A stretch of 31,693 nucleotides of DNA from Candidatus Zixiibacteriota bacterium (GTDB taxonomy: Bacteria; Zixibacteria; MSB-5A5; CAIYYT01): contig JBECKX010000189.1 in the NCBI GenBank assembly GCA_040235515.1, positions 1-31,693 on the forward strand. The letters run 5' to 3'. The notes under the pieces were generated by a model. That model was not told the origin of the DNA. It ran no database searches and was given only the letters and a program-made list of their open reading frames with translations. Positions within the stretch are counted from its first letter, which is position 1; the number at the start of each line of letters is the position of its first letter. Of the stretch, positions 3,683-31,693 are shown one piece after another. A program made the position numbers and the translations under genes.

Positions 3683-3733
3683 CGCTCCAGTTGGGCAAGC
3701 AGTTACAATTCACTCGTGGGAGGACAAATCACA

Positions 3734-4630
3734 ATGCCGGAAACCATGTCAGATTTGTTCGGTGCGATTGATTCTGCCTTTCACTACGAACTATTCAAGC
3801 TGAACAATACCTCCATCACGATTGCATCGCTGGCGATGTTCGTGCTGGTGTTTCTCTTCTTCTTCCTCCTCTCCCGGTTCGTCAATCGCTTCGTACTCAG
3901 GAATCTCCTTGGTCGGTTCCAGATCGCCCAGGGGACGCAGTTCATGCTGCGTCGCATCAGCCACTATCTCATCATGATCTTAGGCACACTGATGGCGTTT
4001 CAGTTTATCGGCATCGACCTGAGCGGACTGGCGGTAATCTTCGGCCTGCTCTCCGTCGGAATCGGATTCGGTCTGCAAAACCTGACTTCGAATTTCATCT
4101 CGGGTGTCATCCTCCTGTTCGAGCGGCCGATCAATGTCGGCGATCGCATCACGGTCAACGACACCGAGGGTGATGTGATGTCGATCAACATGCGGTCCAC
4201 GACTATCTCGTCATTGCAGAATATCACGATTATCGTGCCGAACTCTCAGTTTATCTCCTCGCAGGTGATCAACTGGTCGCATGGCGACACGAAGATCAGG
4301 CTGGATATCGATGTGGGTGTCTCCTACAACTCTGATCTGGATAGAGTGATCAAAGCGCTAACAGAAGTCGCGGAGGAGCACCCCGGAGTGCTCAACAATC
4401 CACGCTGTAACGTGTTGTTTCGCAGCTTCGGGGATTCGGCGTGGAATCTGACGCTGTGTGCGTGGATATCTGACCCGAAAGGACATCATCAGATCCGATC
4501 GGAGTTAAACGGTGCGATCGTGCGCAAGTTCCGCGAGTACGAGATCGAGATTCCATTCCCGCAGCGTGATTTGCACGTGCGCTCACCGCTGCCTGTACCA
4601 CTTGCTTCCGAGCAGCGCGACAGCGCGTAA
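3734..4630 (+). CDS. Small-conductance mechanosensitive channel (MscS family)
   Basis: GIGFGLQNLTSNFISGVILLFERPINVGD, IIVPNS, VINWS and IEIPFPQRDLH motifs. Start at ATG 3734 after GGAGGA. Confidence 0.95.
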   Translation: MPETMSDLFGAIDSAFHYELFKLNNTSITIASLAMFVLVFLFFFLLSRFVNRFVLRNLLGRFQIAQGTQFMLRRISHYLIMILGTLMAFQFIGIDLSGLAVIFGLLSVGIGFGLQNLTSNFISGVILLFERPINVGDRITVNDTEGDVMSINMRSTTISSLQNITIIVPNSQFISSQVINWSHGDTKIRLDIDVGVSYNSDLDRVIKALTEVAEEHPGVLNNPRCNVLFRSFGDSAWNLTLCAWISDPKGHHQIRSELNGAIVRKFREYEIEIPFPQRDLHVRSPLPVPLASEQRDSA

Positions 4631-4657
4631 ATTGAACGCCCTAACAAGAAGAGATAT

Positions 4658-6886
4658 ATGACAACTAACATTCAGCACGCTAAAGCCAACTTCGGAACCG
4701 CTCCGGTTTTCTTAACCGCCATCGCGACGATCCTCGGCGCGATCATGTTCCTCCGATTCGGCTACTCAGTCGGCAATATCGGATTGCTGGGAACATTGGC
4801 GGTGGTTTTAGTCGGGCACCTGGTGACAATCCCGACCGCGCTGGCAATCGCGGAGATAGCCACCAATCAGAAGGTCGAGGGTGGAGGGGAATACTTCATC
4901 ATCTCCCGCTCTTTCGGCCTGAACATAGGTGGTTCGGTCGGAATCGCCCTCTTTCTCTCACAGGCGATCAGTGTGGCGTTCTATATCGTTGCATTCGCTC
5001 AGGCGTTTGATCCGGTAATCTCCCACGCTGCCACCAGTTGGGGCATTGACATCAGCGACAAGCGGATCTTCAGCATCCCGACACTCATCCTGCTGGCGGT
5101 GCTGATGCTGACCAAGGGAGCTGATATCGGGGTTAAGGCGCTCTATGTGGTGGTTGCCACACTGGCGGTTTCGTTGTTCATGTTCTTCCTCGGCTCCGGC
5201 AGCTATGACGCCCCGACCGGTGTGGATATATTGACCAACAGGGTCGAGCAGCCGGACCCCTTCTTCCTCGTGTTCGCGATCTGCTTTCCTGCTTTCACCG
5301 GAATGACGGCTGGAGTAGGGTTGTCGGGGGATCTGAAAGACCCGAAGAAATCAATCCCGCTCGGGACATTGCTGGCGACGGTGATCGGGATGGTGACCTA
5401 CGTCGCCATCGCCTACAAACTGGCAATCTCGGCGTCGCCGGCTGACCTGGACGCCGACCAGCTCGTGATGAGCAAGATAGCGGTTTGGGGGCCGATCATT
5501 CCAATCGGACTGGCAGCGGCAACGATCTCCTCCGCACTCGGTTCGATCATGGTTGCGCCGCGAACGCTGCAGGCGCTTGCTTCCGACAACCTCTTTCCCG
5601 CGAAACCGATTAACGGATGGCTGGCGCGCGGCAAAGGAGCACTGGCGGAGCCGGTGAATGCTTCAATCGTGGTTGTGCTGATAGCGTTTTGTTTCCTCCT
5701 GATCGGCGACGTTGATTTTGTCGCGCAGATCATTTCGATGTTCTTCATGGTAACGTACGGCTCGATTTGCCTGATCTCGTTTTTGCAGCACTGGGCGGCT
5801 GATCCCTCGTATCGACCGACCTTCAAGTCTCGCTGGTATATCTCATTGCTCGGGTTCCTGATGTGTGTCTGGCTGATGTTCAGTATGTCGCCCGGCTACG
5901 CGGTTGCATCGGTGGCTGTGATGATCATCCTTTACATGAGCATCACCGCCTACACCAAAGAGAAACGGGGAATGGCGATCATCTTCCAGGGGGCGATTTT
6001 CCAACTCAGTCGCAAGCTACAGGTGTTCTTACAGAAGACGGAGAAAGAGGAGCGCACCGCTTGGCGTCCATCGATTGTCTGTTTCGGTCACGAATCGTTC
6101 CGGCGGTTGGGGGTATTCGAACTCCTGCGCTGGCTCAGTGCGCGTTACGGCTTCGGCACCTATATCCATTTTATCAAGGGTTATCTCTCGAAGGACTCGC
6201 ACCACTCCGCGCGTGAAGCGCTCGACCGCTTGATCAAGATGGCGCATCTCTCCGAATCGAATTTCTACATCGATACTCTGGTCAGTCCATCAACGACCTC
6301 AGCCATCGCGCAGATCATCCAGCTCCCCGGCATCTCCGGCAAAGAGAACAACATGATTCTCTTCGAGTATGATCGTGACAGGGCTGAGAATCTCGCGGAT
6401 ATCATCGATAACTACCAGTTGGTGCGGTCGGCTGACTTCGATGTGTGCATCCTGGGCAGCTCCGATCGCGGTTTTGGCTACAGAAATGAGATTCATGTCT
6501 GGCTGACTTCAAGAGATTTCGATAACGCCAACCTGATGATCCTGCTGGCCTTCATCGTTCTCGGACACGAGGATTGGAAGCGGGGGCTGATCAAGCTCTA
6601 CGCCGTCTTCCCCGAATCGGAACTGGAGGATCAGTATGAGAGTCTGCTGGAGCTGGTTCAGGCGGGCAGGCTCCCGATCACGCGTAACAATATCGTGGTG
6701 CTTCCGCAACCGGAGGGCAAAGAAGTGAAACAGATCATCCAGGAAAATTCATCGGACGCAGACCTGACCATTATTGGGTTCCGGGGCGAATCGTTGAAAG
6801 CACGGGGGAGCAGCGTATTTGAAGGTTACGACAAGGTCGGGAATATCTTGTTCGTGAACTCGACTCACGAGAAGGAGATCAGCTGA
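4658..6886 (+). CDS. SLC12/cation-chloride cotransporter-like APC-superfamily permease
   Basis: IATNQKVEGGGEYFIISRSFG and FPAFTGMTAGVGLSGDLKDPKKSIPLGT are CCC-type motifs. About 12 TM segments are followed by a roughly 290-aa cytoplasmic domain starting near WRPSI. Confidence 0.88.
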   Translation: MTTNIQHAKANFGTAPVFLTAIATILGAIMFLRFGYSVGNIGLLGTLAVVLVGHLVTIPTALAIAEIATNQKVEGGGEYFIISRSFGLNIGGSVGIALFLSQAISVAFYIVAFAQAFDPVISHAATSWGIDISDKRIFSIPTLILLAVLMLTKGADIGVKALYVVVATLAVSLFMFFLGSGSYDAPTGVDILTNRVEQPDPFFLVFAICFPAFTGMTAGVGLSGDLKDPKKSIPLGTLLATVIGMVTYVAIAYKLAISASPADLDADQLVMSKIAVWGPIIPIGLAAATISSALGSIMVAPRTLQALASDNLFPAKPINGWLARGKGALAEPVNASIVVVLIAFCFLLIGDVDFVAQIISMFFMVTYGSICLISFLQHWAADPSYRPTFKSRWYISLLGFLMCVWLMFSMSPGYAVASVAVMIILYMSITAYTKEKRGMAIIFQGAIFQLSRKLQVFLQKTEKEERTAWRPSIVCFGHESFRRLGVFELLRWLSARYGFGTYIHFIKGYLSKDSHHSAREALDRLIKMAHLSESNFYIDTLVSPSTTSAIAQIIQLPGISGKENNMILFEYDRDRAENLADIIDNYQLVRSADFDVCILGSSDRGFGYRNEIHVWLTSRDFDNANLMILLAFIVLGHEDWKRGLIKLYAVFPESELEDQYESLLELVQAGRLPITRNNIVVLPQPEGKEVKQIIQENSSDADLTIIGFRGESLKARGSSVFEGYDKVGNILFVNSTHEKEIS

Positions 6887-7211
6887 GTTCCTCGGCGAGC
6901 TTCTGCGGTACCGGCTGATGCTCACGACTGAAGCGATTCACGGCGTCGACCAGCATCTCAATCGACTCCGCGTAGTGCCCCTTCTTGAAGACCAGGCGGG
7001 CGACGTTGTTGCGCTGAATCCCTTTCAGTGAAAATAGGTCTTCGACCTGCAGCCGCCAGAAGGGACGCGCCAGGTTGTGGTAGTAACGCAGCCTGCCGAG
7101 CGAACCGAGCGAGACAATGAACTCCAGGTCGGTCGGCTGGTCGAAGACAACATCGCGCGACACGGTGTTGTCGAAACAATCCTCGACTTCCCGAACGGCC
7201 ACGATCTTCAC
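6879..7211 (-). CDS. Hypothetical protein (110 aa) coupled to the desulfurase
   Basis: GTG start overlaps the upstream TGA (GTGA overlap). Globular-looking sequence with EDCFD, YYHNLARPFW and LKG motifs. Confidence 0.75.
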   Translation of the reverse strand: MKIVAVREVEDCFDNTVSRDVVFDQPTDLEFIVSLGSLGRLRYYHNLARPFWRLQVEDLFSLKGIQRNNVARLVFKKGHYAESIEMLVDAVNRFSREHQPVPQKLAEELS

Positions 7212-8404
7212 ATCTCTACCCTCGCGCCACACATCTGCCTGATTGCCGAGAGGAATTCCTCGATCTCATCGAAGCTGGTGAAGAACGATGGACTCACACG
7301 GACGCTGCCATACGGGTGCGAACCGATATGCTTGTGAATCAGCGGCGCACAATGGATACCGCTGCGAACGGTAATGCCAAACGAATTCTGCAGCACGTAA
7401 CCGACATCATCGGGGTCGAGGTCGTCAAGATGGAAATTCAGGATCGGCAAATGCTCGCAGTCGCGATCGTATCCCAGCAGGGTGACTCCCTCAATGTCTT
7501 CGAGCCCCTCCGCCAGCGCTTTGAGTAGTTGATCCTCCCGCTTTCGGATGGTGGCGATTCCCGTATTCTGCACGAAACGAATCCCCGCCTCCATCGCCGC
7601 GAATCCCGGCAGGTTTGCCGTGCCGGCCTCGTAGCGGAATGGTCGCCGTCGCGGTTGGGTGAGAGATTGGCCCATCGCACCGGTACCGCCGTGCAGCAGC
7701 GGCTCGAGTTCCAGTCCCTTGCGCAGGTAGAGCGCACCGGCTCCGGGAATGCCATAGAGCGACTTGTGCCCCGTCAACGCCAGCATATCCACATCGAGCT
7801 GTTGGACATCGATTTCGATCAACCCCGCAGCCTGAGCGGCATCGACCAACACGCTGCAATCAGCCTCGTGCGCGATCCGGCAGATTTCGGCGATTTCCTG
7901 AACTCGGGCGGTGACGTTGCTCGAATAGGTAATGACAATCAGCCGGGTATCCCCGGTCATTGCAGCCTTGATATCATCTGGATCGACCCATCCGGTAGAA
8001 TCACAGCCTACCGTAGAGAGCCGGATTTTTTTCGAGTTGAGCAGGTGATGGAGCGGCCGCACGACCGAATTGTGTTCTACGGCCGTGGTAATCACGTGTG
8101 AATCAAGGATATTCGCGCCGAGGAGTGCCAGGTTGAGTGACGCGGTTGCACCGCTGGTTAGCACTATCTCATTGGCGTTCTTGGCGTTAACGAGATTCGC
8201 TACAGCCTGTCTGCAGGTTGAACGAATCCCGATGCCGATCGAATCCTCCCCGACACGCTCCTGCTCAGCCAATGGCTGTTCGAGGGCTTGCTGAACCGCT
8301 TCCAGAACTTCCGGCGGCTTCGGAAAGGAGGTCGCCGCGTTATTGAGGTAAATCCCCACCGGCGCCGCAGGCGCGCGAGATGTCATATCTGCCATATTAC
8401 TCAT
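7208..8404 (-). CDS. Class-V PLP aminotransferase; cysteine desulfurase/selenocysteine lyase-like
   Basis: YLNNAATSFPKP, EHNSV, VDAAQ, TGHKSL (PLP Lys), EAGT and RSGIHCAP (catalytic Cys) motifs. Start is one of ATG 8404, 8395 or 8386; the track extension to 8566 runs across the divergent promoter. Confidence 0.93.
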   Translation of the reverse strand: MSNMADMTSRAPAAPVGIYLNNAATSFPKPPEVLEAVQQALEQPLAEQERVGEDSIGIGIRSTCRQAVANLVNAKNANEIVLTSGATASLNLALLGANILDSHVITTAVEHNSVVRPLHHLLNSKKIRLSTVGCDSTGWVDPDDIKAAMTGDTRLIVITYSSNVTARVQEIAEICRIAHEADCSVLVDAAQAAGLIEIDVQQLDVDMLALTGHKSLYGIPGAGALYLRKGLELEPLLHGGTGAMGQSLTQPRRRPFRYEAGTANLPGFAAMEAGIRFVQNTGIATIRKREDQLLKALAEGLEDIEGVTLLGYDRDCEHLPILNFHLDDLDPDDVGYVLQNSFGITVRSGIHCAPLIHKHIGSHPYGSVRVSPSFFTSFDEIEEFLSAIRQMCGARVEM

Positions 8405-8486: not shown

Positions 8487-8514
8487 TTGACAAGGGAACC
8501 GAAGTGCGTATAAT
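8487..8514 (+). promoter_or_regulatory. Consensus sigma70 promoter
   Basis: TTGACA (8487-8492)-N16-TATAAT (8509-8514), both hexamers perfect. Confidence 0.85.
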
Positions 8515-8551: not shown

Positions 8552-8743
8552 ATGGCAAAGAGACAATCGTTTGCGGATAAGGCAAACAAGAAGTCACACG
8601 CCAAAGTCTGTCCGGTTTGCAATGCGACGATTGAAGCGATTCGCATCGTCGATCCCACCTACCGCAGCGACAAGAAGTCGTGGAAGTTCGGTGACCGGAT
8701 GGTCGAAGTGTGCAAGTGTAACGAAAAAGAAATTTTCGCTTAA
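8552..8743 (+). CDS. Small basic Cys4 (CxxC...CxC) protein, candidate DUF4295/bL38-like ribosomal protein
   Basis: Perfect promoter and GAGAGGAG RBS; MAKRQSFADK start; Lys-rich; CPVC and CKC motifs. Coding status is well supported, the function is inferred. Confidence 0.8.
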   Translation: MAKRQSFADKANKKSHAKVCPVCNATIEAIRIVDPTYRSDKKSWKFGDRMVEVCKCNEKEIFA

Positions 8744-8926: not shown

Positions 8927-11341
8927 ATGACTCTGAAAAAAATTCTTGAAGAGGAATTCTTTCCGTTTGTAATTCGCCCGGCGCGTTACAGGGGAAACGA
9001 ATGGGGGAGTCAGGATTATTCTACAGCCTACTTGAAGCCACCTGACAAACGGGTGGCTTTAGTTGTTCCCGATAAGTATGATCGCGGTATCTGCTTGCCG
9101 GAGCTGCACCTCTGCTACAATTTCTTCCGCAGCCAGAACTCTATCCAGTGCGAGCGCGTTTTCGCACCCGACTACGACGCCGAAGCGATATTGCGGAGCA
9201 AGAATCTTCCGTTGTTCTCGCTGGAATCGCTCCTGCCGTTAACGGAATTCGACGAGTTGATTTTTCTCATTCCGAGCGAACTCAATCTGACCGCAGTACT
9301 CAATATCCTTGAGTTGGGGAAGTTGCCGCTTGCGGCAGCGGAGCGACACAACTCCAGAACTCGCGTCTATGCCCTCCCGGTTGGTCTGGTGAATCTCTCC
9401 GCCGTGGCAACGCTCTTTGATCAGATCGTAACCGGCGACATCGTGTCGTGGCTGGAACAACGAATTGCGCAGCCTGCCTTGCAGCCGGAGGGGATTACGC
9501 CGGTGGCCAACGGCTGGGAGAAGTTGAAGCAAGATTTCCAGTTCGTGCATTCACCGATCATTCCGTACGAAGAGGTCCTCCACGACCGGCTGACGGTTCT
9601 GCTTCCGCACAGTTTTAAACCCGAAACCTTCGCACGACAAATCAGCGATCAGCTTGCTGCCAGCGGCTTTGAGGAGTTCGCAATCGAGGGTGATGTATTG
9701 AAGTTCGGCGAGGACTTCGTCGCACTCGTGCGCGCTCTTGGCCAGCGCCTGCAGAACGCCGGTGTGCGCTGCCTCCTCCCACCGTTGCCACCGAATCTGC
9801 TCTCGCTCGATCACTTTGATAAGCTGGCTTTCGGTCGGAGACGTTCACTGAGGTTTTACCTCGGTGCAGGCAGCGAGTACCTGCGCGAAGCGCTTGGCCT
9901 CTTCTTTGACATCGACACCTTCTTTGAACTGCTTGCCAACGCCTTTGCCCGAAACTGGCGATCGCTCCGCCTGTATTTCGAAGTCGGACTTCCGGAGGAA
10001 TCTGACTCCGACCTGGAGGAGATTGCGGAAATAGTCTCCACCGCCGAAGAGCTTGGCTTCGAATATGGTGAGAAACATTCGATTCAGGTGACCTTGACCC
10101 CCTTCATCCCGCGACCATTTACCAAGTGGCAGTGGGACGCGATTCTTCCGGCGGCGGAATTGAACCGGAGAGTCGATTTCGTCAAGGCTCGGGTGAAGAA
10201 ACGCAATGTACAATTCCGCAGCCCGTCGATTGATATGGCCGTTCTCGAGGGTTTGCTGGCTCGCGGCGGTGACGCCATGCTCCCGGTGATCAGATCAGCC
10301 CACAGTTCAGGAGCGCGTTTTGATTCCTGGCAGGAACATTTCGATAACGAAACCTGGCAAGCGGCAATCGCGGCGAGTGAAATCGATTTGACGCAGATTG
10401 CGACGGCGCAGGGAATCGAGCGTGAACTATTCGAGCCGGGCGAGGGGTTCGGCATCTCGACCAGACAGCTTCGCCAGCAGCGGGAGAGTGCATTTCCGGC
10501 TGAGCGCAAGAAACCACGCGGCGGCTTCACGCTCGGTGATATTGTGCTTGCCAAACCGGAAGTTGCTGAACAGATTTTGGCACCCCGGTCGGAGGAGAAA
10601 CGCAGTTTTGGCCGCAAGCCGAAACGCGTGACACAGACTTCGACTGCAATGGCCGTACCGCGCAGTCGCGTCAGGCTTCAGTGGCGCAAGGGGGAAGAGG
10701 TGCGCCACGTCGGCCATCTGGCCTGCATGAAGATGTTTGAACGCGCCATCCGCCGTGCGCGTATACCGGTAGAGTACACACAGGGTCAGCAGCCGCGTCA
10801 GAAGGTCTCGCTGGGCCCGCCGCTGGCGTTGGGGTATACTTCCGATGCGGAGTATTTCGATCTGCATCTGGAACAACCCTACCAGGAGGAGTTTCTCCAC
10901 CGCCTGAATCAGGAACTTCCTGCCGGATTTGCCGTAGTTCAGGCGAGGCCGGTGTTTGGAAAAGTCTCGTCGGTCGCTTCGCAAATCAACATGGCATGTT
11001 ACGACGTTGATCTCAACGAGAGCGCCGACATCTCACCAGACCGCGCAGAAGAGATTTTGAATAAGGAGTCGATAGTTATCGTACGTAAGCGGGGCGAGGA
11101 TACGAAGGAGGTCGACGTCAGACCCGCCATTCTTGATCTGCATCTGGATGAATCTGACTCCGGCTCTAAGCGCCTGGAGATGGCGCTGGGGCTGGGGAAT
11201 CTCGGATTTGTCCGGCCTGATGAGGTGCTCTCTCAGTGCCTCTATTTCGACGAAGATAAAGTTTTGACTTTGAAAATCCATCGCAGAGCGTTATTCGTAG
11301 TTCAAGGCGAGCGCAGACTGTCCCCCTTCGAGGTAAGTTGA
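8927..11341 (+). CDS. Degenerate TIGR03960-type B12-binding/radical-SAM domain fused to a TIGR03936 (DUF2344) domain
   Basis: Retains family motifs RPARYxGxE, CERVFAP, PLFSLES, HDR, LYFxVGLP, PFIPRPFTKWQW and GARFDSWQEHF, plus C-terminal HLxxxxxFERAIRRA...YTQG..P. No CxxxCxxC motif. Confidence 0.85.
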   Translation: MTLKKILEEEFFPFVIRPARYRGNEWGSQDYSTAYLKPPDKRVALVVPDKYDRGICLPELHLCYNFFRSQNSIQCERVFAPDYDAEAILRSKNLPLFSLESLLPLTEFDELIFLIPSELNLTAVLNILELGKLPLAAAERHNSRTRVYALPVGLVNLSAVATLFDQIVTGDIVSWLEQRIAQPALQPEGITPVANGWEKLKQDFQFVHSPIIPYEEVLHDRLTVLLPHSFKPETFARQISDQLAASGFEEFAIEGDVLKFGEDFVALVRALGQRLQNAGVRCLLPPLPPNLLSLDHFDKLAFGRRRSLRFYLGAGSEYLREALGLFFDIDTFFELLANAFARNWRSLRLYFEVGLPEESDSDLEEIAEIVSTAEELGFEYGEKHSIQVTLTPFIPRPFTKWQWDAILPAAELNRRVDFVKARVKKRNVQFRSPSIDMAVLEGLLARGGDAMLPVIRSAHSSGARFDSWQEHFDNETWQAAIAASEIDLTQIATAQGIERELFEPGEGFGISTRQLRQQRESAFPAERKKPRGGFTLGDIVLAKPEVAEQILAPRSEEKRSFGRKPKRVTQTSTAMAVPRSRVRLQWRKGEEVRHVGHLACMKMFERAIRRARIPVEYTQGQQPRQKVSLGPPLALGYTSDAEYFDLHLEQPYQEEFLHRLNQELPAGFAVVQARPVFGKVSSVASQINMACYDVDLNESADISPDRAEEILNKESIVIVRKRGEDTKEVDVRPAILDLHLDESDSGSKRLEMALGLGNLGFVRPDEVLSQCLYFDEDKVLTLKIHRRALFVVQGERRLSPFEVS

Positions 11342-12675
11342 TGAACGATGCACGATTAAACCCCCGCGACGAAGCATACAGGGTGTTGATGGCTGCTCGC
11401 CGGAATCCCGAATCGCTCCAGTCGGAACTGGTCCAGCTCAAGCAGAAGCGATTCAGGGGGCGCTACGACCTGAACCTCGCAGTCTATCTGGTAACCGGCA
11501 CGATCAAGATGCAAAAGCGTCTTGACCTGATCCTCTCCCAATATCTGCGCAAAAAATTATCCTCTCACTCCGATTCACTCATCACGGTTCTGCGTCTTGG
11601 TTGCTACCAATTGCTTCCCGAGTGCAACATCCCGCATTACGCCGCGGTTAACGAGACCGTGAACTTGGCCAAACGCTACACGCCCGGCGCAGATTCGATG
11701 GTGAATGCCGTCCTGAAAAATATCGCGCAGAATATCGAGAAACTGACCTTCGACGAACTGCGTGGCGACATGCTCAATTTCCTCACGCAGTACTACTCCT
11801 ATCCGATCTGGTTCGTGCGCGAACTGTTGTCATACTTTCCTGACGGCGTGGTTGAGAAGTTCCTGCGCGTCGGCAACGAGCCGCATCCGCTGCAGATTCG
11901 GCTCGACCAGGATCCGGAGAACCTGAAGAAGTATCTGGCCAAACTGCAGAAGAACAACATCAGGTTCAAGCAGGGTAAGTTCCTGAAAAACTACGTCCAC
12001 ATCATCTCCGACGTCAACCCCACTCAGTTGCCTCACTTCGATGAGGGCGAGTTCATCATACAGAATGAAGCTTCCGGTCTGGTGGTGGAGCTTCTGGATG
12101 TCCACCCGGGCCAGACGGCGCTCGATCTCTGCGCCGCTCCCGGCGGGAAAACAACCGATATCGCCAACCGCGTCGGTTCCAGTGGAAGCGTCACCGCCGT
12201 GGATGTCTCGGAGGCGCGGCTGAGTATGCTGAGGGAGAATCTCTCACGCCTCAAGATCGGCAACGTCTTTACGGTGCAATCGGATGGCAGCAAGTTCAAG
12301 TCCGGCACTTACGATCGCATTTTGCTCGACGCTCCCTGCTCCGGTACCGGCGTGTTCCGCAAGTTTCCTGAGGGACGCTGGATCACCACACCGAAGGATG
12401 TCGAACGCTTCGCGGCGTTGCAGCTCGCACTCTTGGAGAACGCGGCTACCCTGCTCAATCCCGGTGGCATCATCGTCTACTCGACCTGTTCGATCATGCG
12501 GATGGAAAACGAGCAAGTCATCGGACAGATGCTTGCCAATCACACCGATCTGGAACTCCACGTGCCGGAGTCTTTCAAGCATGAGGACCTCATCGGCGAA
12601 GACAAATTCCTGCGCACTTATCCCGGTTTGAAATACTTCGATAATCTCTTCGCTGCCGCCCTGCGGCGGAAGTAG
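11341..12675 (+). CDS. rsmB: 16S rRNA m5C967 methyltransferase RsmB (NusB-like N-terminal domain)
   Basis: IPHYAAVNETV, DLCAAPGGKT, LLDAPCSGTG and YSTCS motifs. ATG overlaps the upstream stop (TGATG). Confidence 0.93.
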   Translation: MNDARLNPRDEAYRVLMAARRNPESLQSELVQLKQKRFRGRYDLNLAVYLVTGTIKMQKRLDLILSQYLRKKLSSHSDSLITVLRLGCYQLLPECNIPHYAAVNETVNLAKRYTPGADSMVNAVLKNIAQNIEKLTFDELRGDMLNFLTQYYSYPIWFVRELLSYFPDGVVEKFLRVGNEPHPLQIRLDQDPENLKKYLAKLQKNNIRFKQGKFLKNYVHIISDVNPTQLPHFDEGEFIIQNEASGLVVELLDVHPGQTALDLCAAPGGKTTDIANRVGSSGSVTAVDVSEARLSMLRENLSRLKIGNVFTVQSDGSKFKSGTYDRILLDAPCSGTGVFRKFPEGRWITTPKDVERFAALQLALLENAATLLNPGGIIVYSTCSIMRMENEQVIGQMLANHTDLELHVPESFKHEDLIGEDKFLRTYPGLKYFDNLFAAALRRK

Positions 12676-24555: not shown

Positions 24556-27327
24556 GTGAAGCTTGTTGTAGTAGAATCCCCCGCTAAAGCCAAGACTATT
24601 TCCCGTTTTCTGGGACCTGACTACAAGGTTGCGGCAAGCTACGGGCATATTCGCGACTTGCCAGGCTCGGCATCCGAGATTCCAAAGGCAGTAAAAGCAG
24701 AGAAGTGGGCGCGCATGGCGGTTGATGTCGATAACGGCTTCAAACCGATCTATGTCGTGCCGAACGACAGCAAGAAGCATATCAAAGAGTTGAAAGACCT
24801 CCTCAAGGATGCCGATGAGTTGCTACTGGCAACGGACGAGGACCGCGAGGGTGAGTCGATCAGCTGGCACCTGCTGGAAGTGCTCAAGCCGAAGGTCCCC
24901 GTACGCCGAATTGCATTCCATGAAATCACCAAGACTGCGATAGAGCAGGCGCTTTCGAATCCGCGCAGCGTCGACGAACAACTGGTGAAGGCGCAGGAGA
25001 GTCGTCGCATACTCGATCGGCTCTTCGGCTATTCGCTCTCGCCGGTACTATGGAAAAAAGTACGCACCAAGCTGAGTGCCGGGCGCGTTCAGAGCGTTGC
25101 GCTGAGGCTGATCGTCGAACGCGAGGAAGAACGCCAGCGCTTCAAATCAGCTACCTACTGGGATGTCGAGGCCAGGATAGCTGGTGATGGCAACGAGTTT
25201 ACAGCCAAGTTGGTCTCGGTCGGCGAGCGAAGGCTCCCCAATGGTAAAGATTTCGATCCCGAAACGGGTGAGTTACTTGCGCCGGAGAAGGTGATCCAAA
25301 TCGACCAGGCGGGCGCCGAAAAGATTGTCACCGACGCGCAGAAGCTGATACCCTGGGTGGTCAGCAAAGTAGAAAAGAAACAGACAAAGCAGCGACCGTC
25401 GCCGCCGTTCACGACCTCTACCCTTCAGCAGGCCGCAGGAAACGCTTTTGGATTCTCGCCCCGCCAAACGATGCGTGTCGCACAGGAACTCTATGAAGGC
25501 ATCGATATCGGCAATGGCGACCGTGAAGGTCTCATTACCTATATGCGTACCGACTCCTTCACGCTCTCAGAAAAAGCGCTGCAAGAAGCCGGTGCCTTTA
25601 TCAAGAATGAATTCGGGGATCAGTATTACGACGGTAAGCGGGTTTACAAGACCAAGTCAAAATCTGCCCAGGAGGCGCATGAGGCGATCCGCCCGACCGA
25701 TTTTCGCCGCACCCCGGCGCAGATGAAACGCTTTCTCGATGAACGGGAATTCAAGCTCTACAGCCTGATCTGGAACCGCGCGCTGGCATCACAGATGGCG
25801 GACGCAATTCTGGACAAGACGGCAGCTGAGATCACGGTGGAAATCGACGGAGTACCACATACCTTCCGCGCGAACGGCTCCATGATCAAGTTCCCGGGTT
25901 ACTTGACGGTCTATGGTGGTCAGACCGCCGACACCGTACTTCCTGACTTGTCGGAAGGGGATAAGGTTGGTGCTGCTGACAGTGGCGAGCGACTCAAACT
26001 CGCAGAGCTGATGCCGCTGGGGCATGAGACCACGCCGCCGGCGCGCTATACGGAGTCGTCGCTGGTAAAACGACTGGAGGAAGAGGGGATCGGTCGTCCA
26101 TCCACTTACGCTCCGACTATCTCAACAATTCAGGCACGCGAGTATGTTGTCAAGCGCGGCAGCGCGTTGATACCTACCTACGTCGGCATGGCGGTGGTGC
26201 ACCTGTTGCGTAGCCATTTCGACCATTACATCGATCTCAAGTTCACCGCACGGATGGAGGACGCACTCGACGAGATCGCCGAGGGTGAAACCGACTGGGT
26301 GGAATTCCTCTCCAAATTCTACCACGGTAATGGTGACAGCGGTGAGGGGCTGGCAAGAAAGATCGAAGAAGAACTGCCCTCTATAGAGTATCCCGAGATT
26401 TACCTCGGTAATGATCCTGAAACTGGTGACAAGATTCATGTGCGCATCGGTCGCCGCTCGGCATACGTGCAGCGCGGTGATGGTGGTGAGGGCAATACCG
26501 CCTCGATTCCAATGGATGTCTTTATCGATGAGTTAACCGCCGAGAAAGCGCATGAATTTATCAAGGTCCAGAGTAAGAGCAAAGAACCGCTCGGCAAGCA
26601 CCCCGTCTCCGGGAAAAATGTCTACGCACTCCTGGGACCCTTTGGACCCTATGTGCAGGAGGGTGAGTCTGACTCCGAGGAAAAACCGAAACGAACCGGT
26701 TTGCCGCAGGGGGTGACTCTCGCCGATGTCGATTTTGAATTCGCTCTGAAGCTGCTCTCGCTTCCACGTTCTCTCGGAATCGACCCTGAGACCGGCAAAG
26801 AGGTAGCCGCCGGGTTGGGCCGCTACGGTCCCTATGTCGTGCGGGGCGGATTGTATCGTCGCGTCGAGTCGTTCGAAAAGCTCTTCACCATTACGCTGGA
26901 AGAGGCGATAGAGAAGCTCAAGACCGCCAAGGGGCGCACCAAAGAAATCCTTAAGGAACTGGGCGAACATCCGGAAACGAAGAAAGAGATTCAGGTAGCC
27001 ACCGGCCGCTATGGTCCTTACGTGACGGATGGCAAAGTCAACGCCAAGTTGGCCAAAGACAAGGATCCGATGCAGGTGACGATGGAAGAAGCGCTGGCGC
27101 TGCTGGCTGAGGCTGCAGAAAAGAAGGGAACGCGCAAGCGGACCACTCGCAAGACTGCCGCGAAATCGTCGAGCAAGGCAAAAACCACAAAGACCACCAA
27201 AGCCAAACCGAAAGCCGGCTCCAAAGCAAAGACAGCTTCGAAAACTTCAAAGTCGTCGACGAAAAGCTCGAAGAGTTCATCCACAAAGGCGACCAGCCGT
27301 AAGTCGGCCAAATCGAAAGTGGGTTAG
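24556..27327 (+). CDS. topA: DNA topoisomerase I with zinc-free C-terminal repeats and a Lys-rich tail
   Basis: VESPAKAKTI, ATDEDREGE, SAGRVQS, GLITYMRTDS (catalytic Tyr), AQEAHEAIRPT and GIGRPSTY motifs; GRYGPYV-type repeats. Confidence 0.98.
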   Translation: MKLVVVESPAKAKTISRFLGPDYKVAASYGHIRDLPGSASEIPKAVKAEKWARMAVDVDNGFKPIYVVPNDSKKHIKELKDLLKDADELLLATDEDREGESISWHLLEVLKPKVPVRRIAFHEITKTAIEQALSNPRSVDEQLVKAQESRRILDRLFGYSLSPVLWKKVRTKLSAGRVQSVALRLIVEREEERQRFKSATYWDVEARIAGDGNEFTAKLVSVGERRLPNGKDFDPETGELLAPEKVIQIDQAGAEKIVTDAQKLIPWVVSKVEKKQTKQRPSPPFTTSTLQQAAGNAFGFSPRQTMRVAQELYEGIDIGNGDREGLITYMRTDSFTLSEKALQEAGAFIKNEFGDQYYDGKRVYKTKSKSAQEAHEAIRPTDFRRTPAQMKRFLDEREFKLYSLIWNRALASQMADAILDKTAAEITVEIDGVPHTFRANGSMIKFPGYLTVYGGQTADTVLPDLSEGDKVGAADSGERLKLAELMPLGHETTPPARYTESSLVKRLEEEGIGRPSTYAPTISTIQAREYVVKRGSALIPTYVGMAVVHLLRSHFDHYIDLKFTARMEDALDEIAEGETDWVEFLSKFYHGNGDSGEGLARKIEEELPSIEYPEIYLGNDPETGDKIHVRIGRRSAYVQRGDGGEGNTASIPMDVFIDELTAEKAHEFIKVQSKSKEPLGKHPVSGKNVYALLGPFGPYVQEGESDSEEKPKRTGLPQGVTLADVDFEFALKLLSLPRSLGIDPETGKEVAAGLGRYGPYVVRGGLYRRVESFEKLFTITLEEAIEKLKTAKGRTKEILKELGEHPETKKEIQVATGRYGPYVTDGKVNAKLAKDKDPMQVTMEEALALLAEAAEKKGTRKRTTRKTAAKSSSKAKTTKTTKAKPKAGSKAKTASKTSKSSTKSSKSSSTKATSRKSAKSKVG

Positions 27328-30359: not shown

Positions 30360-31693
30360 ATGATGAATAGAACACGATCCAATCGTAGTAGCCTGGTAGA
30401 GAAAGTCAAAGCCGGAAAATGGTTTGCCACGTTCAGGGGACAGGCAGTGCTGCTGTTGACTCTGCTCGTGTGGAACACGCCTGCGTCGGCGCAGGAACTG
30501 CCGATCTCTGCGGATTTGCAGGAGAGCCGGGAGCAGGTGAAATCGCTGGAAGCGCAGCTCAACAATACCGGCGCTCTGCTCGACAGGGCGGTTGATCCCA
30601 ATGTCTACGTTATCGGACCGGGCGACAGACTCCTGGTTTCGTTTTATGAAATGTCACTCCCCCCGTTGACACTTGAGGTCTTGCCGGAAGGCGTTGTCTC
30701 GATCGCCGGGGTGGGTGAGGTGAAGTTGGGTCCGATCACGCTGGCGAAAGCCAAGGAGAAGATCCTCGCTGCGCTTCGTCCGCGCTATCGTGATCAGTCA
30801 GCATCCGTGACGCTCGCAGCCGTACGCAATTTCAAAGTCGCCGTGACGGGTGCGGTTGGCATGCCGGGCGCCGTTGTGGTGAGCGCCGCCGATCGTGTTT
30901 CGGAGGCGGTGACGCGAGCGGGTGGGCTGCTTGCCAAGGGGTCGCGGCGCAGTATCAAGCTCATCAGCGACAGCGATACCGTGGTCGCCGACCTCGCCTA
31001 CTTCGAAGCAACCGGACAGAGCCACATGAACCCGTATCTTCACGAGGGTTACGAGATCTATGTCCCGGCCATTTCAGACTCGTTCGCCACTATCGAGTCA
31101 TTCGGCGCGGTTACGATGCCGGGCAAGTTCGAGTATCGTGAGGGAGACCGGGTCTCCACACTCCTCGACCTCTCTTTCGGCCCCTCGCTTGACGCCGACC
31201 TCGGACAGGCAGAGTTGATTCGGTTTGCCGATGACGATTCGACAACGATGGCGATGAATGTCAACCTGCGCGATGTCCTGGCGGATCGTTCGTCGTCTGC
31301 CAACATTGCCCTCAAGCCGGACGACCGACTCTTTGTCAGGGCGATTGCGAATTTCCGACCCAAGGAGCAGGTGCAGATTGTTGGTGAGGTCAAGTACCCG
31401 GGCACTTATCCGATCAAACCGGGCTGCGAGACGCTGGCGGAACTGATCGAGTACGCCGGTGGGTTGCTGGAGACAGCATCGCTTGACGAAGCGGAGATGT
31501 ATCGAAGTTCACGGTTTGCGGAAAACAACGAGAACAGCTTCGAGCAGTTGCTGCAACTCTCGACCGAAAAACTCACCGACTTTGAGGTTCAGTATCTCAA
31601 GGAGCTTTCGGCCCAGAAGCCGGGCCGCGTCGCCGTTGACTTCAATCTGCTGTTGGTCGGCAAGTACTCGCAGGTTGATGTACCGTTGCTGGC
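30360..31693 (+). CDS. SLBB-domain polysaccharide export protein (Wza/KpsD-like), 3'-truncated
   Basis: Manual translation: signal peptide (...LLLTLLVWNTPASA), VDPNVYVIGPGD, VLPEG, VAVTGAVGMPG, AGGL, LKPDD and VQIVGEVKYPGTY. The frame is open to the window end, which is why it is absent from the ORF track. Confidence 0.88.
   Translation, partial: MMNRTRSNRSSLVEKVKAGKWFATFRGQAVLLLTLLVWNTPASAQELPISADLQESREQVKSLEAQLNNTGALLDRAVDPNVYVIGPGDRLLVSFYEMSLPPLTLEVLPEGVVSIAGVGEVKLGPITLAKAKEKILAALRPRYRDQSASVTLAAVRNFKVAVTGAVGMPGAVVVSAADRVSEAVTRAGGLLAKGSRRSIKLISDSDTVVADLAYFEATGQSHMNPYLHEGYEIYVPAISDSFATIESFGAVTMPGKFEYREGDRVSTLLDLSFGPSLDADLGQAELIRFADDDSTTMAMNVNLRDVLADRSSSANIALKPDDRLFVRAIANFRPKEQVQIVGEVKYPGTYPIKPGCETLAELIEYAGGLLETASLDEAEMYRSSRFAENNENSFEQLLQLSTEKLTDFEVQYLKELSAQKPGRVAVDFNLLLVGKYSQVDVPLL

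Follow-up and report, generated by a model that had tools for sequence, protein, structure and literature searches.

Fusion gene and lost motifs

The window analysed here is a stretch of 31,693 nucleotides (contig JBECKX010000189.1, positions 1 to 31,693, assembly GCA_040235515.1) from Candidatus Zixiibacteriota bacterium, whose genome we call G000; families, genera and loci are labelled f, g and L. The gene in question, at 8927..11341 on the + strand, is a TIGR03960-TIGR03936 (DUF2344) fusion in which the radical-SAM (S-adenosylmethionine) motif is deleted, as judged from reading frame, profile matches and alignment, and its 804-residue product is termed P0001. As a preliminary description of this DNA had stated, the reading frame is uninterrupted, with 804 codons and zero internal stops, and coupled to rsmB (11341..12675, +): its TGA (11339-11341) shares base 11341 with the rsmB ATG. 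The RsmB protein passes the NF011494 and TIGR00563 cut-offs and carries the PCSG and STCS motifs.

P0001 has the same order of domains (PF19864, barrel, DUF2344) as the uncharacterised TIGR03960 B12-binding radical-SAM proteins fused to DUF2344. Its matches to TIGR03936 (161.7 bits, cut-off 71.9), PF10105 (144.7 bits, cut-off 23.8) and Radical_SAM_N2, PF19864 (84.2 bits, cut-off 29; residues 61-173, 9107..9445, +), exceed the thresholds, and the alignment to the TIGR03960 hidden Markov model (HMM) that had been proposed as a check gave 229.9 bits, about half of the curated cut-off of 462.3. The PF04055 match of 15.5 bits is likewise under its cut-off (29.5), although TIGR03960 positions 284-552 do align to the barrel (9623..10414, +). 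By descent the protein belongs to TIGR03960 nonetheless, occupying the orthologous gene position before rsmB and nesting on the tree among the intact zixibacterial orthologues. A search of the ESM Atlas with the whole protein returned TIGR03960/DUF2344 clusters, and a PDB sequence search with the family profile returned 9ccb, RimO and MiaB, the GGP..G(D/E)GE region of the profile aligning weakly with the same words in 9ccb.

The usual [4Fe-4S]-binding motif of the radical-SAM superfamily is CX3CX(phi)C (accessible part of PMC13331322), and in P0001 the loop that should hold it is gone. H219-D-R begins at 9581 and is followed directly by LTVLLPHSFKPETF (9581..9631, +); compared with intact orthologues, 19 residues including RGCxxxCxxC are missing. 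The other cofactor-site motifs of intact members are replaced as well, GGP by LPVG (9374-9385, +), GD(G/A)E by GDIV (9434-9445, +), APEAG by YLGAG (9857-9871, +) and LSLS by IEGD. The loss of cofactor ligands after HDR, as initially described, is borne out, and of the motifs then listed for intact members CxxxCxxC, GGP and APEAG were right, while GEGE was not, the consensus being mostly GDGE/GDAE. A cysteine cluster before the TIGR03936 domain had also been counted among the disarmed parts; this cluster occurs in non-zixibacterial members and is absent from intact native zixibacterial orthologues too, so that its loss does not belong to the disarming. No alternative conserved cysteine triad was found: the seven cysteines of P0001 (56, 63, 75, 282, 600, 691 and 771) contain no CxxC pattern, and the sole cysteine invariant across 20 deletion-type proteins, C75, is present in many intact copies too.

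A shared and staged deletion

Among the 41 genomes searched for the fusion gene, 40 gave matches, and 37 long reading frames from these were aligned; fragments, duplicates and G019, whose copy is split (probably an assembly error, since the adjoining genes are also split), were excluded. The identical deletion is found in 13 full-length proteins of family f1, namely those of G000, G001 and 11 genomes of genus g3. Four genomes of genus g2 read GAGHNCRxCP, with the first cysteine lost and CxxC left, and the earlier-branching G004 (genus g4) has the intact motif, as does a fragment in G005. In the tree of the 37 frames, obtained by a quick search, these states are nested, from intact (g4) through CxxC only (g2) to the deletion (g1 and g3), with Shimodaira-Hasegawa-like approximate likelihood-ratio supports of 99-100. 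The deletion group has its own conserved words, e.g., sGSErLREa and FyQ.lANA, and genus g1 bears an additional deletion around residues 180-200. This first tree also grouped five motif-less rows from outside f1 via long branches, a grouping absent from the trees of RsmB and of DUF2344.

An assembly artefact at 9580-9630, raised beforehand as a possible cause of the deletion, is ruled out by its occurrence in 13 proteins and by a public contig spanning 9552-9728 with zero gaps or mismatches, albeit one that may stem from the window's own study. A general loss of Fe-S (iron-sulfur) or B12 enzymes is ruled out as well. Since G000 retains another 13 radical-SAM matches (with MiaB, MtaB, RimO, RlmN and LipA among their best families) and three B12-binding domains, the loss is specific to the fusion gene. 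Neither tblastn nor HMM search found a second fusion copy in G000, which is 100% complete. A DNA pattern for the intact motif matched only 2 of 20 f1 relatives, both from genera whose own copy is intact, and was absent from families f10 (0/3), f13 (0/4) and f14 (0/3).

Selection on the disarmed protein

The ratio of nonsynonymous to synonymous substitution (dN/dS) was estimated by the Nei-Gojobori method with bootstrap. For the barrel it is 0.075-0.139 in four close deletion-type pairs of g3 (bootstrap upper bounds at most 0.24), which confirms the expectation that orthologues sharing the deletion would have dN/dS below 1; the three g2 pairs gave 0.13-0.18 and one close intact pair 0.23. In the G000-G001 pair the values are 0.21 for the N-domain and 0.10 for DUF2344. 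The fusion protein is thus an enzyme homologue that has lost its catalytic residues and is yet under purifying selection, i.e., a candidate pseudoenzyme; the shared deletion, the low dN/dS and the conserved DUF2344 support the proposal that a non-catalytic form is maintained by selection rather than decaying neutrally.

The two halves of the protein nevertheless fare differently. In all 13 motif-less pairs compared, DUF2344 is better conserved than the barrel; in the 17 intact pairs this is never the case. With the RsmB catalytic domain as the yardstick, the barrel diverges by a median of 2.51 in nine motif-less pairs vs 1.03 in 12 intact ones, and DUF2344 by 1.78 vs 1.29, so the reversed order of conservation is the barrel relaxing and not DUF2344 tightening. 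A gain of constraint in DUF2344 after the loss was considered and rejected once values were normalised to RsmB, raw group averages being confounded by depth. The barrel is also net acidic, at -13 in G000 and with a median of -7 in motif-less vs +5 in intact copies.

Recurrent losses across Zixibacteria

Across the phylum the family profile matches 249 of 251 genomes, including 198 of 198 good ones. The intact-motif DNA pattern matches 198 of the 251, a count that misses contig breaks and CKFC variants; G046, G114, G120 and G202 carry such variants and are intact all the same. We read 75 copies, picked to cover weak scorers and their intact neighbours and not as a frequency estimate, and CxxxCxxC is absent from 34 of them, with differing lesions, while DUF2344 is present in all. 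The first cysteine was lost independently in G051, loops are scrambled in G050 and G072, and they are deleted or replaced in G026 and in families f10, f13, f14, f9 and f17; within some motif-less pairs identity is just 24-25%. Genus g27 goes furthest, its three genomes (96-98% complete) matching DUF2344 only. At the two g27 loci read (L084:5208-5981 and L085:5318-6061) a stand-alone DUF2344 gene immediately precedes rsmB, and no more than a trace of the former N-terminus is left.

An RsmB tree was made for 55 rows, the other 20 of the 75 lacking an adjacent rsmB that could be used, and on it the motif underwent nine state changes, at least six of them forced by starred branches. The DUF2344 tree of all 75 rows gave 11, at least three of them forced; the two trees come from quick LG+G4 searches and contain long branches. 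Because the regain of several motifs is unlikely, we infer that these changes are losses, and on this comparison the loss of the cluster loop likely arose several times in Zixibacteria.

In families f9 and f17 the native copy, recognisable by the same small gene upstream, is motif-less, and a second, intact copy lies at another locus (L041:3761-6538 and L043:3818-6595); this second copy encodes a TIGR03960-TIGR03936 protein with a Cys-rich linker and is followed in both loci checked by a MiaB/MtaB-like gene; the second copies were possibly acquired by transfer. Two related fusion proteins, P0065 and P0252 (the latter named Candidatus Eisenbacteria), retain CxxxCxxC and have lost LSLS, APEAG and other motifs, possibly another stage of decay. 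The single database proteins P0157 and P0237 are changed solely in the third cluster cysteine and may reflect sequencing errors. A COX1-family match occurs in 32 of 34 motif-less genomes vs 170 of 251 overall, while families f18, f11 and f2, without COX1, keep the motif, as do many COX1-bearing genomes; given that kin are not independent, this is no more than a hint of a link between motif loss and oxygen respiration.

DUF2344, the linker and RsmB

The DUF2344 domain (TIGR03936; 10667..11293, +) is TruA-like by profile matches and profile-profile comparison. Aligned by hhalign with the N-terminal half of TruA (TIGR00071), it gave probabilities of 80% and 59%, the controls reaching 0.07% on reversal and no more than 1.3% with three unrelated profiles, and Pfam pairs DUF2344 with PseudoU_synth_1 (accessible part of PMC7955657). 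A global hhalign of DUF2344 to TruA gave no match, nor did a PDB sequence search with the domain, and the ESM Atlas gave no usable match beyond its own family. The catalytic Asp of TruA (RTDxGVHA) aligns to Ala634 (PLALGYTS), in a column whose three most frequent residues include no Asp in any group. G000 also encodes a distinct truA that passes the cut-off.

Eight residues of the domain (H597, G620, P623, S639, E642, D645, Y692 and R786) each reach a conservation of at least 88% across 134 DUF2344 copies. At the acidic position of SHL(D/E), all 123 copies outside f1 have D or E, the SHL(D/E) word being retained in all 24 motif-less ones among them, and all 11 f1 copies have Ala; P0001 reads GHLA there (H597-A599, 10715-10723, +, with Ala599 in place of the acidic residue). 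Because the intact G004 already has Ala, the acidic residue was lost before the cluster loop.

Common to f1 is also a linker motif, GFTLGDIVLAKPEVAEQIL (residues 533-551; 10523..10579, +), followed by a basic FGRKPKR. A further peculiarity of this family concerns RsmB: residues 1-245 (11341-12075), which make up its N-terminal and middle domains, have changed far less than the catalytic domain, a pattern not shared by other Zixibacteria. In four f1 pairs the N-terminal NusB-like domain shows 91-99% identity and the catalytic domain 83-86%, and the relative divergence of the NusB-like domain is 0.05-0.48 in f1 vs 0.49-1.67 in 17 other pairs. Between species with 95-99% identity in the NusB-like domain and 83-86% in the catalytic domain, synonymous sites are changed by 38-67%, and since 40 of 60 fourfold-degenerate sites differ between G000 and G001, the constraint acts on the protein. 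That the domain replaces NusB is ruled out by a separate nusB in five of five genomes. The DUF2344 Ala, the linker motif and the constrained RsmB N-domain coincide on one branch, which counts as one event and does not prove contact.

Neighbouring genes

In most zixibacterial loci read, the fusion gene stands before rsmB, a PASTA protein gene and rpe. Upstream of it, in many of these loci, lies a conserved gene for a basic protein of 63 residues with CxxC and CKC (MAKxQSFADK...CPxC...CKCN; 8552..8743, +), preceded in the window by a putative promoter of perfect sigma-70-type consensus, TTGACA-16-TATAAT (8487..8514, +). The small protein is 97% identical in G001, and the copy in L042 has no cysteines; it has no significant match in Pfam, protein families or PDB structures. 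It may be an unannotated ribosomal protein, possibly akin to bL38.

Elsewhere in the window, two tandem Skp/OmpH-like genes (1519-2049 and 1973-2533, +; named by eye) lie between bamA-like and lpxD-like genes, such matches numbering two in G001 and one each in G014, G006 and G003. The stretch from lpxD to the small gene holds MscS-like, amino-acid-permease-like and cysteine-desulfurase-family (TIGR01977) genes (3716-8401); in G006 and G003 these three are missing there, and G001 has the MscS-like and desulfurase genes and no permease match. Also named by eye were a topoisomerase-I-like gene with a long Lys/Ser/Thr-rich tail (24556-27327, +) and, at the window end, a polysaccharide-export-like gene (30360-31691, +). 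No Rfam matches were found in the window.

Discussion

The lost motifs, the orthology, the failure to find a paralogue, the purifying selection, the relaxed barrel and the repeated losses with DUF2344 kept lead us, with a probability of roughly 55%, to view P0001 as non-catalytic and as retained chiefly for DUF2344 and the linker, which would act in rRNA or ribosome maturation, the dead barrel being largely an appendage. In this scenario, a native single-copy fusion lost its cluster loop and with it, as predicted from the missing ligands, radical chemistry; the parts for which selection likely keeps the gene are chiefly the TruA-like DUF2344 and the basic linker, whose action is probably non-catalytic, DUF2344 binding RNA or a ribosome-assembly protein and the barrel persisting as a mostly folded appendage. 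RsmB would be the leading candidate partner in f1. The suggestion of an RNA-binding scaffold in the preliminary description is plausible for DUF2344 with the basic linker and doubtful for the barrel, which is relaxed about 2.5-fold, net acidic and absent in g27.

A context for such a role is offered by the intact family. In 80 loci outside the phylum, mostly from Bacillota and selected by intact motifs, DUF2344 is found at 59, frequently as a gene of its own, RNase E/G at 43, rplU at 22, rpmA at 19, prp at 18 and obg at 15. From these gene neighbours and the TruA-like domain, the intact family would appear to modify RNA. RlmX, a cobalamin-dependent radical-SAM 23S rRNA methyltransferase with more product in anaerobic growth, is a precedent for rRNA modification by B12 radical-SAM enzymes (accessible part of PMC13602947). 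RlmX is an active enzyme of a family other than TIGR03960, and nothing indicates that TIGR03960 makes the same modification.

Several observations weigh against our interpretation. The similarity of DUF2344 to TruA, from profile comparison, is moderate, and the net charge of the domain, -2 in G000, is atypical of an RNA binder. Constraint on DUF2344 does not rise after loop loss when normalised to RsmB, and in close pairs the barrel dN/dS is similar to that of DUF2344, which fits a separate role of the barrel; the barrel is, moreover, retained in all motif-less lineages but one. For the window's own barrel there is no dN/dS value, dS being saturated in the G000-G001 pair, and the sequence pairs were chosen by hand and partly depend on one another, with G059 used twice. 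Finally, no published function for the intact TIGR03960 family or DUF2344 was found in a literature search that took in few subscription journals.

The most serious competitor, which we consider unlikely, holds that the barrel, though dead, took on a separate binding function as a protein scaffold, possibly with RsmB. The dN/dS of 0.075-0.18 in close motif-less pairs, the group-specific words of the deletion group and the retention of about 500 residues in most motif-less lineages would all suit it. Low dN/dS, however, can arise from folding alone, and the roughly 2.5-fold relaxation, the complete loss of the barrel in g27, and lesions that vary by lineage, with so little identity left in some motif-less pairs, speak against it.

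Alternatively, and less probably still, DUF2344 could itself be an enzyme working independently of the radical step, its activity keeping the gene. This would explain its conserved His, Ser, Glu, Asp, Tyr and Arg, the SHL(D/E) word in motif-less copies outside f1 and its frequent occurrence as a gene of its own, yet it sits poorly with the uniform replacement of the acidic residue by Ala in f1, P0001 included, and with the lack of a counterpart to the catalytic Asp of TruA. Poorer again are the prospects of a relic on its way out, kept solely by folding and by operon constraints such as translational coupling to rsmB. The staged erosion, the extra deletion in g1 and the overlap with the rsmB start might be read in this manner, but the frames stay open across genera though synonymous sites are near or at saturation, DUF2344 dN/dS is about 0.1, every good genome has a match, and DUF2344 survives even where the rest is lost.

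Less probable again is atypical binding of a cofactor, SAM or cobalamin, or a cluster held by other cysteines, as a sensor or unusual enzyme: g2 and G051 have independently kept CxxC after loss of the first cysteine, and the other radical-SAM and B12-binding proteins of G000 show such cofactors to be in use, but P0001 has no CxxC, the one invariant cysteine of the deletion group is shared with many intact copies, and the remaining cofactor-site motifs are replaced too. The idea put forward at first, that P0001 partners or regulates an active paralogue, suits the paired copies of f9 and f17 and is hardly tenable here, being contradicted in G000 unless the assembly lacks an intact copy, at odds with the lack of the intact-motif pattern in 18 of 20 f1 relatives and in f10, f13 and f14, and without a match in G000 to TIGR03904, the family of YgiQ, which we take to be RlmX.

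Returning to a protein kept for DUF2344 and the linker, we may go one speculative and improbable step further for f1. There an ancient RNA-modifying fusion might have been disarmed twice, first at the acidic residue of DUF2344 and then at the Fe-S loop, to become a dedicated non-catalytic subunit of RsmB, with the linker motif or DUF2344 docking on the NusB-like domain; the repeated losses could then betray an ancestral non-catalytic ribosome-assembly role of TIGR03960/TIGR03936, separable from radical chemistry.

Radical-SAM pseudoenzymes were not found in the literature searched. The nearest entry is TIGR04347 of NCBIfam, 'pseudo-SAM/SPASM protein', by its name radical-SAM-like with an atypical motif and presumably without the usual cysteines; SPASM proteins are a different subgroup. 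The zixibacterial loss differs from it in recurring inside one single-copy orthologous family with its intermediates preserved, and P0001 differs from the intact TIGR03960 members not only in the cluster loop and the replaced motifs but also in a relaxed, acidic barrel and in GHLA for SHL(D/E).

The label 'radical SAM protein' is wrong for the motif-less copies. Zixibacteria offer a natural and recurrent dissection of one single-copy gene of a widespread family without known function, TIGR03960/TIGR03936, in intact, one-cysteine-lost, loop-deleted and DUF2344-only forms, which suggests that selection maintains DUF2344 rather than radical chemistry. An RNA modification is predicted in the intact lineages and its absence in the disarmed ones, and such a difference would name the substrate of the family.

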